Notes: generated by a model from the sequence alone, not told the origin. Counted from the first letter of the stretch, positions 30,070 to 36,025 are shown. The stretch: 64,000 nt of DNA from Polaromonas sp. (GCA_038902775.1 JBCKNM010000003.1:3-64002), one strand, 5' to 3'. Numbers and translations are program-made.

Positions 30070-30189
30070 ACCTTCATCAAGGTCGTAAACCGACGTAGCT
30101 TCAACTTTATACCAGCTAAGGACCAAGGCTTCAAGTCAATCAAAAGGGTTTGAGGCTTTTGACAGTTTTCACGCCTTTCACAGCTTTAA

Positions 30190-30280
30190 GGGCACTTCTA
30201 GAAATTCAGATTTTCAGGATGAAGTGCTAGGCGGACGCAACGCAGCAATTCGTCCGAAAAATGAATTTATAGAAGTGCCC
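30190..30280. mobile_element. MITE family A, centre deleted
   Basis: Both termini intact; about 50 bp of the centre is missing; flanks TTAA/TTCA. Confidence 0.88.
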
Positions 30281-30294
30281 TTCATGTCAACCGA

Positions 30295-32386: not shown

Positions 32387-32974
32387 ATGTATGACACGGT
32401 AAAAATCGGCATCGTCTCGGTCAGCGACCGCGCATCGAGTGGCGTGTATGTTGACAAAGGCCTGCCCACCTTAAAAGAATGGCTGACCCGCGCGCTGCTC
32501 AACCCCATCACGTTTGACGAACGCCTGATCCCCGACGAGCAGGCAGGCATCAGCAAGGCATTGATTGCACTGGTAGATAGCGGCTGCTCGCTGGTACTGA
32601 CCACAGGCGGCACCGGCCCGGCACTGCGCGACGTGACGCCCGAAGCCACGCTGGCTGTGGCGCACAAGGAGATGCCCGGCTTTGGCGAGCAGATGCGGCA
32701 GATCAGTTTGCGCTTTGTGCCAACGGCCATACTGTCGCGCCAATGCGCCGTGGTTCGTGACAAAAGCCTCATCATCAACCTTCCCGGCCAGCCGAAATCC
32801 ATCGCTGAAACGCTGGGGGGGTTAAAAGGTGAAAGTGGTGAGCAAATCGTGCCTGGCATATTTGCCGCAGTACCTTATTGCATTGACCTGATAGGTGGGC
32901 CTTATCTGGAAACTGACAGCCAGGTGTGCAAGGCCTTCAGGCCCAAGTCTGCGCTGCGCACGCCAGCCCCTTAG
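32387..32974 (+). CDS. mog: Molybdopterin adenylyltransferase
   Basis: SDRAS, TTGGTGPALRDVTPEAT, NLPGQPKSI. Confidence 0.95.
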   Translation: MYDTVKIGIVSVSDRASSGVYVDKGLPTLKEWLTRALLNPITFDERLIPDEQAGISKALIALVDSGCSLVLTTGGTGPALRDVTPEATLAVAHKEMPGFGEQMRQISLRFVPTAILSRQCAVVRDKSLIINLPGQPKSIAETLGGLKGESGEQIVPGIFAAVPYCIDLIGGPYLETDSQVCKAFRPKSALRTPAP

Positions 32975-32980
32975 AAAGAA

Positions 32981-33232
32981 GGGCATCTCTATAAATTCAT
33001 TTTTCAGGCGAATTGCGTCGTTGGGCGGTACTCGCAGGGTTATTGGGGTCAGACGCCAATTTCATTGCGATGCAGAGCATCGCACCCGGAGGGCGTGCCA
33101 AAGGCACGATGAATTTGGACTCTGACCCCAAAAACCCATTCCGGTTGCTGCGCGACCCTCGCATGAGCCCAAAGGGCGATGCGACACCCGCCTAGCACTT
33201 CATCCTGAAAATCTGAATTTCTAGAAGTGCCC
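32981..33232. mobile_element. MITE family A with nested family B element and an extra hairpin module
   Basis: Family A termini; B at 33037-33137 replaces the apical hairpin; extra TCGCAT-GAGCCCAAAGGGCG-ATGCGA module shared with 34571-34742. Confidence 0.88.
33037..33137. repeat. Family B element (reverse orientation)
   Basis: Near reverse complement of 17487-17587. Confidence 0.9.
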
Positions 33233-33270
33233 AGAGCCCTTGAAATCGACAAATGGGTGCGACGGAGGTT

Positions 33271-33332
33271 ACGTGACCCGTATGTCCGGTGGTGTGGGAG
33301 GGAGGGGCCGCGAGGCTTCTTCCTATCCCGAT
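33271..33332 (+). ncRNA. Group II intron (class C-like) 3' remnant: partial domain V and domain VI
   Basis: GACCCGTATGTCCGGTGGTGTGGGAGGG...GCCGCGAGGC...CCTATCCCGAT with the AY end; 5' half of DV is missing. Confidence 0.8.
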
Positions 33333-33342
33333 TAGACATTAG

Positions 33343-33371
33343 TTGCATGTGCGTACTATTGTGCATACAAT
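33343..33371 (+). promoter_or_regulatory. Cassette-internal sigma-70 promoter, probably giving a leaderless mRNA
   Basis: TTGCAT-N17-TACAAT with the ATG 6 nt downstream. Confidence 0.65.
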
Positions 33372-33377
33372 TGTGAT

Positions 33378-33653
33378 ATGGAAATCGTTTGGGATCCCGA
33401 AAAGGCAGCGGTCAATTCTGGAAATCATGGTGGCGTTACTTTTGAAGAGGCTACGCCAGTTCTTTTTGATCCATATGCGCTAACTCACGAAGATCGTGAC
33501 GCTCACGGCGAGCGCTGCTTTGTGACGCTGGGGTCGGGCGGAAAAGCCCGACTCCTGGTTGTTGTGCATACTTTTCGTGGTCAGACAATTCGGATTATTT
33601 CGGCATGGAAGGCGAACTCACCCCAACGGAAGCGCTATGAAAAACAATTCTGA
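33378..33653 (+). CDS. BrnT-family toxin
   Basis: WDPEKAAVN..NHG.VTFEEA..V, GERC...G, IRIISAWKA. Confidence 0.9.
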   Translation: MEIVWDPEKAAVNSGNHGGVTFEEATPVLFDPYALTHEDRDAHGERCFVTLGSGGKARLLVVVHTFRGQTIRIISAWKANSPQRKRYEKQF

Positions 33654-33990
33654 CAAGCTGTACGAGAAATTCAAAAATCTGGACTTTGCGAACGCACAGC
33701 CGGTTGCACTGACGACGCAATTGCAGCGACTCCAAGCTATGGCCGGCGTAAAATCGCGCATCACGATGCGGGTGGATAGTAGCGTTCTCGCTGTGTTCCG
33801 TGCCCGTGCGCAGTTGCTCGGCGGAAGTTATCAAACACTGATGAATGACGCATTGAAGCAGTTTGCGCAAGGTGTAACTTTGGCTGATATGCTAAATCAC
33901 ACCGTCCGCGAGACCGTTGATGCATGCCTAACCTCGCGTTCAACCTCGCGTTCGAGTGGACACGCAAAAGCAGCACGCCACTCAACTTGA
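33637..33990 (+). CDS. BrnA-family antitoxin, reading through the attC site
   Basis: KSRITMRVDSSVLAVFR...YQTLMNDAL ribbon-helix-helix motif; overlaps brnT. Confidence 0.85.
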   Translation: MKNNSDKLYEKFKNLDFANAQPVALTTQLQRLQAMAGVKSRITMRVDSSVLAVFRARAQLLGGSYQTLMNDALKQFAQGVTLADMLNHTVRETVDACLTSRSTSRSSGHAKAARHST

Positions 33991-33993
33991 TCG
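33926..33993 (+). other. Integron attC site, cut at the R' box by the intron
   Basis: R'' GCCTAAC, 5-nt spacer, L'' GTTCGAGT (extra C) pairing with L' ACTCAAC, 6-nt spacer, then G; contains a 12-bp tandem duplication. Confidence 0.72.
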
Positions 33994-34145
33994 GTGTGCC
34001 GTGCATGGCACGAATTCAGTCGGGTGAAAGTCCTGACACCAGGTATTCGCAGAGCCGAAGGTTAGCCAAAGGGCAAGTGCGTCGTCGCGAGGCAGGGTGC
34101 GGTAGGCAAGCCCAAGGGGAAATCGCGGGACGATGAACAAAAACC
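33994..34145 (+). ncRNA. Group II intron (class C-like) 5' remnant, domain I
   Basis: Starts GTGTG; CCGTGCATGGCACG, GGGTGAAAGTCC, GAGCCGAAGG, GGGCAAG, GTCGCGAGGC, AAGCCCAAG motifs; truncated by an IS end. Confidence 0.78.
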
Positions 34146-34216
34146 GGCGTGGCTCAAAACCGGGTAACACTTTTTCGGTAAGATGCGACGGACAAAACGT
34201 TATTTGGAGAATCGCC

Positions 34217-34444
34217 ATGCAAGCCGTCCTGGATGTGAATACCCTGCCGATCGCGGAGCGGCTCAGGCTCATGGAGTCTTTGTGGGAGTCTTTGTGTGCC
34301 TCCCAGCCCGATGGTGCAGCCCTACCTGCGTGGCATGACGAGGTACTGACACAGCGCATAGCCAGGATCGACAACGGTAGCGAATCAGTCAGCCCATGGC
34401 CGCAAGCAAAAGAGCGCATCCGCGCACAAGCGCGTGGTAGTTGA
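34217..34444 (+). CDS. Addiction module antitoxin
   Basis: LPIAERLRLMESLWESL...PAWHDEVL..R...W motif; GGAG RBS. Confidence 0.85.
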   Translation: MQAVLDVNTLPIAERLRLMESLWESLCASQPDGAALPAWHDEVLTQRIARIDNGSESVSPWPQAKERIRAQARGS

Positions 34445-34918
34445 TGCGGGTAGAGATTGCCCGGTCTGCAGAGACTGATCTGCTGCAAGGCTTTGCGTTT
34501 TATGAACGACAGCAAGCGGGCGTTGGCGACTACTTTCTCGATAGCCTGTTTGCGGATATCGATGCCTTGAGGGCACTTCTAGAAATTCAGATTTTCGGGA
34601 TGAAGTGCAAGGCGCGTGTCGCATCGCCCTTTGGGCTCATGCGAGGGTCGCGTAGCAACCGCAATGTACTTCAGGTACATGAGGATTGCGAGCACCGCGC
34701 AACGCGGCAATTCGCCCGAAAAATGAATTTATAGAAGTGCCCTTGACGCTCTATGGGGGCATCCATCCCAATCCGACGGACGCCTGCACCGCACTCTGGC
34801 GAAGCGGTTTCCATTCGCCATCTACTACACTTTTCAAGACGACACCGTAACGGTCGTTGCCGTGCTTGATTGCCGCCAAAATCCAGCCTCGATCATCGGC
34901 CATTTGCACCGCGTGTGA
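34444..34918 (+). pseudogene. RelE/ParE-family toxin interrupted by a MITE and a frameshift
   Basis: MRVEIARSAETDL...DIDAL, then MITE, then TLYGGIHP, then in another frame RLHRTLAKRFPFAIYY...VAVLDCRQNP. Confidence 0.85.
34571..34742. mobile_element. MITE family A inside the toxin gene, TTGA target duplication
   Basis: TTGA|GGGCACTTCTA...TAGAAGTGCCC|TTGA; removing it restores the DALTLYGG frame. Confidence 0.93.
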
Positions 34919-34950
34919 ATCGGACCGAACCGTGCCAGTGACAGGAACGG

Positions 34951-35067
34951 GGCGTAGTTCAAAAAGTAACGTTTTTGGGTAACACGGACAATGTGAATTT
35001 TGGATGGTTTGCCTATGACTCAATCGATGGTCACCCGAAAAAGTGTTACACGGTTTTGAACCACGCC
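34951..35067 (-). mobile_element. 117-bp family H mini element
   Basis: GGCGTAGTTCAAAAAGT...TTTTGGGTAACAC and GTGTTACACGGTTTTGAACCACGCC match both ends of 13638-13894 in reverse. Confidence 0.75.
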
Positions 35068-35086
35068 CCGTAACCCTTTAAATGCC

Positions 35087-35204
35087 GTAACTACTCAGGT
35101 TTCTGTAGGGTGGGCATCGCCCACGCAATCCCCGACTTGGCCCCATTCATGAAGCCAGCGTGGGCAGTGCCCACCCTACAAATCAGCAAGACCTGAGTAG
35201 TTAC
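35087..35204. mobile_element. MITE (family D) carrying a GTAG-type REP doublet
   Basis: TIR GTAACTACTCAGGT/ACCTGAGTAGTTAC; flanks TAAATGCC/TAAATACC; internal GTAGGGTGGGCATCGCCCACGC ... GCGTGGGCAGTGCCCACCCTAC (35105-35179). Confidence 0.8.
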
Positions 35205-35245
35205 TAAATACCAGCGTAAACAGCTACTAAATCAATAGCATCACA

Positions 35246-36025
35246 TCACTTGCCAACCAGCTGTTTGAGCTTGTCGGCTTCAAAGGTTTCTTCGCGCGCT
35301 GCATCAATCGGCACACAGTCCCTGCGCGGGCTGGCTGCTGTGCTTGACAGCGTCTCTATGGCCTGCCACAGCAGCGCAATCTGGTGCTCATGCGACGATG
35401 CGTTGTCGATCAGCCCCTTCATGGCCTGGCCTATGGGGTCGTCATCCAGCGTGATGCCGTAGGCAGAGAACTTGGTGTCGGGTGCTGTGACATCGGCGCT
35501 TTCGCCCACTTTGGACAGGATGATGCGGGCCGGAATCCCCACCGCCGTGGCGCCAGCGGGCACCGGCTTGATGACCACCGCGTTGCTGCCGATCTTGGCA
35601 CCGTCACCCACCACAAAGCCGCCCAGCACTTTGGCCCCCGCGCTCACCACCACGTTGCGGCCCAGTGTGGGGTGGCGTTTTTCGCCCTTGTAGAGCGAGG
35701 TACCGCCCAGCGTCACGCCCTGGTAAATCGTGCAGCCATCGCCAATCTCGGCAGTCTCGCCCACCACCACGCCCATCGCATGGTCAAAAAACACACGCTC
35801 GCCAATTTTTGCGCCAGGGTGAATTTCAATACCCGTCAGCCCACGCGCGATGTGTGAGATGAATCGGCCAGACCACTTGAAGCCGTGCGTCCAGCAGGCG
35901 TGCGCCCAGCGGTGCAGCACCAGCGCGTGCAGGCCGGGGTAGCAGGTGAGCACTTCCCAGGCCGTACGGGCCGCAGGGTCACGGTCAAGAATGCACTGGA
36001 TGTCGGAGCGGAGTCTGGAGAACAT
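35246..36025 (-). CDS. cysE: Serine O-acetyltransferase
   Basis: [32 protein letters not shown]. Confidence 0.96.

Follow-up and report, generated by a model that had tools for sequence, protein, structure and literature searches.

A solitary brnTA cassette between dead group IIC intron stubs as a probable relic of an integron cassette array

A short stretch within 64,000 nucleotides of Polaromonas sp. DNA (hereafter the window, meaning the whole stretch that was analysed) is probably the fossil fragment of an integron cassette array, namely a CALIN (integrase-less attC cluster) that was reduced to one cassette, invaded by introns and trimmed by deletions. The relic lies entirely on the + strand and reads, in order, intron 3ˊ stub, TAGAC, brnT, brnA, attC and intron 5ˊ stub. 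The evidence shows directly what these parts are, on which strand and at which point the introns inserted, to which lineage they belong, and that paralogous arrays carry introns at successive attCs. The locus presumably once held a longer array, or received an array fragment, and repeat-associated deletion would then have made the cuts. An earlier reading made from the sequence alone (the sequence-only reading) had given the same order, and every element is present as it stated, on the + strand. Its coordinates are off by about 10 nt for the 5ˊ end of the downstream intron, which lies at 33994 and not at 33984.

Results and discussion

Genomic setting and the brnTA cassette

The relic lies in the gap between the genes mog and cysE (window positions 32975-35245), which synteny with relatives reveals to be a variable spot. 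The two genes are only 24 bp apart in one relative (G122), an amidase gene occupies the gap in a genome of the same genus (G143), and two other genera have 0.6-1.2 kb between the genes. None of the relatives compared shows an intermediate state, for example a longer array between mog and cysE. The left boundary of the relic is a composite MITE (MITE C, 32978-33232, strand not assigned) that was defined by repeat-family analysis and that directly abuts the intron 3ˊ stub. The right boundary is a 33 nt half copy (34146-34178, strand not assigned) of an inverted repeat of about 118 nt, termed pal2.

The cassette starts with TAGAC (33333-33337, + strand), which is the 3ˊ exon of the upstream intron and the remainder of an R' core, GT/TAGAC, from a preceding attC that has been lost. 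It carries two overlapping genes on the + strand. The first, brnT (33378-33653), encodes a type II toxin of 91 aa that matches the Pfam family BrnT_toxin (PF04365, E 1e-20, profile positions 1-74 of 77). The second, brnA (33637-33990), encodes an antitoxin of 117 aa that matches BrnA_antitoxin over residues 16-77 (PF14384, E 1.6e-11), and its reading frame extends through the attC. The toxin and antitoxin genes look intact, and they are probably all of the relic that still works. Upstream of brnT there is a tentative promoter-like stretch (33343-33371, + strand), with an inverted or direct repeat and the elements TTGCAT, a 17 nt spacer and TACAAT. Promoter-like sequence at this site agrees with the consensus at 8 to 9 of 12 positions, and the scan also returned an overlapping 9/12 match at 33333-33362. 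The number of such matches in the region is not above that in shuffled sequence. The promoter of the sequence-only reading is therefore retained as promoter-like sequence, but not as one that stands out from shuffles.

The brnTA cassette recurs in a metagenome contig, at 14 differences over 604 nt. The match starts exactly at 33332 (TTAGAC), and the sequence 5ˊ of the cassette in that contig is unrelated to the window. A copy in another context is as would be expected for a mobile cassette. The TAGAC boundary at G/TTRRRY, this metagenome copy and the attC model described below all uphold the earlier identification of an integron-type cassette with its own attC.

The attC site marks the + strand as the top strand

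The attC (33926-33993, + strand) has the R'' sequence GCCTAAC, and its R' is cut after the G. To locate it, we used a family covariance model that was made from 11 uninterrupted attC sites and holds 15 pairs. Three of these sites come from the array on contig C13 of the source genome, five from other contigs, and three from an array in a relative (G068). RNAalifold gave only five pairs for the attC alignment, and the R and L box pairs were supplied by hand. Across the 64 kb window, a single match of this model has an E value under 1; it covers 33938-33999 of the + strand and scores 25.7 bits (E 5.6e-4). The minus strand gives nothing at these positions. As an outside check, the model places the qacL and aadA1 attCs of the class 1 integron of plasmid pR148 on their known top strand. 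The energy of single-strand folding of the window site, with R' missing, is not better than that of shuffles (z -0.65 and -0.84).

Details of the site agree on its polarity. The arm L'', TTCGAGTGG, carries an extra C and pairs with L', CCACTCAA, and this extra C corresponds to an extrahelical G on the bottom strand. The polarity of the window attC is the same as that of the intI-adjacent C13 array when this is read away from intI. The sequence-only reading had taken the extra C to mark the + strand as the attC top strand, a view with which both the C13 polarity and the covariance model agree. It follows from the + strand match that the intron lies in the top strand of the attC, at GT/TAGRY of R' and co-directional with the cassette genes. 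The sequence-only reading had placed it there as well, and had held that an attC scored on the minus strand, or left unscored, would speak against it; the + strand is the one that the model calls.

Two further observations concern this region. A perfect 12 bp tandem duplication (AACCTCGCGTTC twice) is present within the attC at 33930-33953; it is in frame with brnA and adds a repeated TSRS. The pal2 palindrome was considered as a candidate attC and was rejected, as it is present in about 40 dispersed copies and has no match to the attC model.

No integron surrounds the cassette. A search for the integron integrase (TIGR02249) found none on the window contig, and the sole match above the cut-off in the genome is a truncated intI on contig C13. 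Likewise, no group II intron reverse transcriptase is present on the window contig and none was found in the 60%-complete genome. These results concur with the sequence-only reading, in which no integrase or reverse transcriptase was seen nearby. The genome's only integron, at positions 25469-30309 of C13 (L017, L061), comprises intI, attI and four intron-free cassettes; their attCs are of one family with the window attC. A 100 bp MITE cuts its intI right after GHSDVSTTM and before the IYTHV motif, and the catalytic tyrosine is lost. With no intI or attI beside it, the window cassette is not a complete integron and fits a CALIN. Since its attC lacks R', the cassette is predicted not to be excisable by an integrase.

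The flanks are dead stubs of two group IIC intron copies

When 200 genomes of the same family were searched, a full-length reference intron of 1.98 kb came to light in G068 (L043:5066-7045). This copy has the 5ˊ sequence of the window at one end, the 3ˊ sequence at the other, and a frameshifted gene for a reverse transcriptase-maturase (the intron-encoded protein, IEP) between them. The IEP matches the Pfam families RVT_1 and GIIM, and it ends after the X domain with no endonuclease domain. An attC-like hairpin lies 5ˊ of the full-length intron (L043 4204-5067), and its R'' side is occupied by an IS110-family transposase gene on the other strand. The intron is followed by hicAB-like and brnTA cassettes, and this attC was apparently struck by both the IS and the intron.

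The upstream stub in the window (33233, or 33242, to 33332, + strand) ends in CCCGAT. BLAST aligns it with nucleotides 1652-1683 and 1918-1980 of the reference, between which an internal deletion of 234 nt takes out the 5ˊ strand of domain V. What is left begins with a handful of maturase (X) domain codons and continues with the 3ˊ strand of domain V, domain VI with its bulged A, and the terminal GAU (CCCGAU). Apart from these few maturase codons, none of the IEP gene remains in the window. The downstream stub (33994-34147, + strand) starts with GTGTGCC and holds the first ~154 nt of domain I, without the rest of this domain and without domains II to VI. It is 87.5% identical to nucleotides 1-136 of the reference, with about 20 nt more beyond, and 92-95% identical to its paralogs on contigs C2 and C7 (95% over 154 nt for the C2 copy). 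An identical right end (..GAACAAAAACCGG) in the window and on C2 was considered as an element boundary and dismissed; the window merely diverges into pal2 at this point, and the C2 copy continues.

Both stub sequences recur on four other contigs of the source genome (C2, C7, C70 and C117). The 3ˊ paralogs on C2, C7 and C70 have the same CCCGAU end, carry the CGC triad, and are 97-98% identical to the window stub over the common 64 nt. They match the Rfam model Intron_gpII (RF00029) with 40.2-40.8 bits against a gathering threshold of 40. Rfam recovers no group II model in the window itself, whether at gathering thresholds or, over 32900-35300, with E relaxed to 10, as the stubs are either too short or cut, the upstream one having lost the 5ˊ strand of domain V. 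Thus, the Rfam test that had been proposed for the flanks is negative for the window and positive for paralogs that share its intron end. The full-length G068 copy scores above threshold for RF02001 and RF01998 (group II D1D4-3 and D1D4-1), as does the related intron of pR148. From these matches we judge the window flanks to be real but dead group IIC intron remnants that come from two different copies. The sequence-only reading had called them group IIC intron ends, and the full-length relative and the Rfam-positive paralogs bear this out. Its caveat that the rejoined exons are one T short is also correct, as the 5ˊ junction reads ..ATCG/GTGTG without the T of the usual ..CGT/.

Most of the ribozyme is missing from both stubs, which are predicted to be unable to splice or move. 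This state also bears on whether the sandwich could be a working circularly permuted group II intron, with domains V and VI upstream and domain I downstream, whose back-splicing would turn the brnTA RNA into a circle. Group II introns that are permuted in nature reportedly have the order 3ˊ intron part, exon, 5ˊ intron part, and retain all catalytic domains. The sandwich shares this order with them, but it lacks most of the ribozyme: the 5ˊ strand of domain V with the catalytic triad is gone, domain I is represented by only ~154 nt, and domains II to IV are absent. Given also that no Rfam group II match occurs here even at E up to 10, a functional permuted intron is scarcely credible.

Insertion into the attC top strand is a habit of the lineage

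Related copies of the intron in five genera of the source's bacterial family have attC hairpins as their 5ˊ exons. The sequence before the intron is ..CGT at seven of nine attC-type 5ˊ junctions; the window junction, which has no T, is among the other two. Most of the 3ˊ exons are TAGGC, TAGAC, TAGAT, TAGCC or TAGCA and rebuild GTTAGRY, and the cassette genes that follow run in the direction of the intron. Wherever the model detects an attC that bears an intron, it calls it on the strand of that intron, and the 5ˊ arm has the extra C (and A) of a top strand.

A wider survey used a 19 nt motif from the intron 5ˊ end, with one genome per species, and returned at least 119 matches; the motif comes from the same lineage, and the survey is biased in this respect. 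The sequence ..CGT, which resembles the R' of attC, precedes the intron 5ˊ end in 50 of 79 usable matches. Among the 80 loci listed from other species, 15 have an attC model match on the intron's strand that extends 3-5 nt into the intron, and none has such a match on the opposite strand. This class C 5ˊ motif is present in many phyla (L066-L145), and copies not preceded by CGT follow T-rich, terminator-like ends, for example in Terriglobia and Bacillota.

The same arrangement exists on plasmids. In pR148 (NC_019380.1) and other IncC plasmids, a related intron resides in the aadA1 attC as ..GCGT/intron/TAGAT, and in pR148 its ltrA gene is co-directional with qacL, blaOXA-10 and aadA1. The IEP of the plasmid intron is 59.8-62% identical over 262 aa to that of the G068 relative, and ribozyme segments are 65-75% identical to those of pR148. 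PMC7923331 cites one published top-strand group IIC case, from Enterobacter cloacae (Rodriguez-Martinez et al. 2012), and the pR148-type intron is probably the one that this citation describes as unusual. By all of these comparisons, top-strand insertion is a constant and already known habit of the lineage. The sequence-only reading had regarded the strand choice in the window as an atypical departure, and this view is not sustained, because the same spot and orientation recur in five genera and in the aadA1 attC of pR148.

Introns at successive attC sites as a probable explanation of the inside-out order

Two further loci of the source genome show what a less reduced array looks like. On contig C2, a 3ˊ stub is followed by a cassette whose attC holds a mini-intron of 456 nt without a protein gene, then by a second cassette with a plain attC, and then by a third whose attC holds a 5ˊ stub. 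On contig C7, a 3ˊ stub is followed by cassettes and by an attC with a 5ˊ stub. Arrays in two related genomes (G079 and G122) also carry introns at successive attCs, often internally deleted at various points. The C2 locus is an insertion relative to G122, and the sequences flanking the C7 locus are not adjacent in relatives. One of the alternatives offered by the sequence-only reading, two introns at successive attC sites, is thus an arrangement that is seen on C2, on C7 and in related genera. Protein-less mini-introns of 456 to ~890 nt were observed in four genera (L044, L045, L046 and L054, in G079, G122, G052 and on C2 of the source genome, G000), and their internal deletion junctions vary (132/1650, 463/1907, 696/1902 and 520/1571).

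These arrays support the fossil fragment reading, which can be set out as follows. Copies from a single class C group II intron lineage would have entered at both boundaries of the cassette. They would do so by reverse splicing into the top strand of attC, splitting the R' core into GT and TRRRY, and would thus be oriented like the cassette genes. Later deletions, probably linked to the very abundant MITE-type repeats of the genome, would then have removed all but the last ~330 nt of the left intron and everything beyond the first ~154 nt of the right one, and the further 234 nt deletion would have taken half of domain V. The inside-out order needs no special mechanism, since cutting any array inside two introns leaves a 3ˊ intron part ahead of the cassettes and a 5ˊ intron part behind them. 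The relic can now neither splice nor move, because the ribozyme is mostly gone, no intron reverse transcriptase was found, R' is lost and intI is truncated.

One feature of the arrays is not predicted by random decay. The breaks in the left stubs of all three loci, and the junction in the mini-intron, fall at intron nucleotides 1644-1655 (maturase codons REIDKW), beside flanks that are unrelated. The sites are 33233-33265 in the window, 10131 and 9111 on C2, and 18954 on C7. The chance of such a common left breakpoint under random decay is approximately (12/1980) squared, which keeps a directed process or a shared history in play as what may lie behind it. Possible causes are a deletion hot spot near repeats, a master copy with a MITE at this position, or an RNA 5ˊ end that serves for template switching. 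The right ends differ among the three loci (intron nucleotides ~112, 154 and 200), all six outer stubs are short (at most 340 nt of the 2 kb intron), and introns in other genera are broken elsewhere than at 1644-1655.

The common breakpoint is also a point in favour of a one-step import, in which the cassette and one intron, on circular or linear DNA, would have been opened inside the intron and inserted, so that the intron and not the integrase moved the cassette. Such DNA might come from intron-intron recombination in an array, or from reverse transcription of a read-through RNA that extends from one intron to the next. Three separate loci with the inside-out order, left stubs that lie within 12 nt of one another and a mini-intron junction at the same place would suit this idea, as would the fact that all three loci lie outside the integron, two of them in variable intergenic spots. 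However, the two stubs do not meet: the 5ˊ stub ends near nucleotide 154 and the 3ˊ stub starts near nucleotide 1645, so a further loss of ~1.5 kb would be needed. The right ends are not shared between the loci, other genera break their introns elsewhere, and no reverse transcriptase was found in the 60%-complete genome. Moreover, the inside-out order is the default for any intron-rich array fragment, and solitary attC sites without intron pieces occur in the same genome, as seen in a regular-expression and folding screen of a kind that proved noisy for attCs. On balance, we regard one-step import as unlikely.

A broader form of the same idea, that the inside-out units at the three non-integron loci arose by a route which depends on the intron and sets cassettes down outside integrons, is likewise unlikely. 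Such a route could involve reverse transcription with template switching on an RNA whose 5ˊ end lies near nucleotide 1650 and that reads through the cassette into the next intron, or re-insertion of a circle that intron-intron recombination had produced. The sequence-only reading had suggested intron-associated movement of cassettes outside integrons, and had offered a cassette-plus-intron circle reopened inside the intron as its second alternative. Neither fares well: the sandwich is expected of any intron-laden array fragment, intron-free solitary attCs exist, and the circle would need the additional ~1.5 kb of intron loss.

Repeats at the cut ends

The fossil fragment reading attributes the cuts to repeat-linked deletion, and repeats are indeed found at the cut ends. 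The MITE family concerned has terminal inverted repeats GGGCACTTCTAGAAATTCA, a length of 91-255 bp, and 4 bp target duplications that are mostly TAAA, TTTA or TTAA. There are about 48 copies genome-wide, three of them in the window (30188-30283, 32978-33232 and 34570-34744), and a second MITE of 100 bp is nested in some copies. Several observations favour repeat-linked decay: MITE C, at the left stub, lacks a duplication (its flanks are AGAA and AGAG, with no matching 4 bp), the integron intI is cut by a MITE, the left stub on C2 abuts the end of a 100 bp MITE, and the right stub in the window ends at the half pal2. The missing duplication at MITE C is a weak sign of deletion, given that perfect 4 bp duplications are present in 62% of MITE copies and absent from about 38%.

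The region to the right of the relic holds a second toxin-antitoxin pair, made up of an Unstab_antitox antitoxin gene (34217-34444) and a ParE-like toxin gene (34441-34917) that is split by one MITE (MITE B) with a TTGA duplication. This pair is bracketed by the half pal2 and by a full copy (34947-35071) of the ~118 nt palindrome, of which there are ~40 full copies genome-wide. An inversion between the inverted MITE arms (33137-33232 and 34571-34666) was considered and set aside, as the ParE-like gene is continuous across MITE B and the TTGA duplication is present.

Repeats at both outer junctions also raise the question of an assembly artefact, in which the contig would be misjoined at repeats and the stubs and their neighbours would not be truly adjacent. 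The source genome is a fragmented, repeat-rich MAG that is 60% complete, and none of the public sequencing runs contains more than 28% of the stretch; the assembled matches come from relatives and repeats. The inner junctions, however, are the normal exon junctions of the intron lineage and recur in other genomes. In addition, the mog and cysE flanks are syntenic in four relatives, and the continuity of the ParE-like gene across its MITE, with the TTGA duplication, speaks for the assembly at that point. A misjoined contig is therefore a very improbable source of the structure.

Relation to known systems

The closest counterpart of the window lineage is the pR148-type intron. Both are inserted in the top strand, at R' between GT and a TAGAT-like exon (TAGAT in pR148) that follows an attC hairpin, and both are co-oriented with the cassettes. 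The pR148-type ends, GTGTG at the 5ˊ side and CCTATCCCGAT at the 3ˊ side, are shared with the window lineage, as are the Rfam families (D1D4-3 and D1D4-1). The IEP in each case consists of reverse transcriptase and maturase without an endonuclease domain, although the identity of 60% refers to the full-length relative and not to the stubs. Unlike the pR148 type, the window holds two dead stubs from two copies, in an environmental chromosome of Comamonadaceae type and far from an integrase.

The relic also resembles the group IIC-attC introns such as S.ma.I2 (PMC3001079, PMC7923331), which belong to class C, target attC hairpins at a core-site GTT, and are found in integrons and CALINs, often in truncated form. 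The target of those introns is R'' on the bottom strand (TTGT/T), where they lie antisense to the cassettes and between a gene and its attC. The window lineage instead uses R' on the top strand (..CGT/T) and lies in sense orientation between an attC and the next cassette. CALINs with truncated introns (H.ha.F1/F2 and UHB.F1; PMC7923331) offer another parallel, as they are integrase-less cassettes with 5ˊ-truncated group II pieces that keep domains V and VI. In those examples, however, the introns are group IIB or bottom-strand IIC, and the relic has a single toxin-antitoxin cassette between top-strand IIC stubs.

Conclusions

With the relic, an intron lineage that has been little described gains an example that is environmental, chromosomal and decayed throughout. 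The lineage is directed at the gene-sense strand of attC, one base from the crossover point of the integrase, and is also found in clinical class 1 integrons. Its introns can pile up at successive attCs, lose their protein gene, and freeze cassettes in place by splitting the R' core. The locus does not show a new route of cassette movement. If it is true that the common breakpoint reflects an RNA step, then these arrays would bear on the old proposal that attC introns help to build and spread cassettes.
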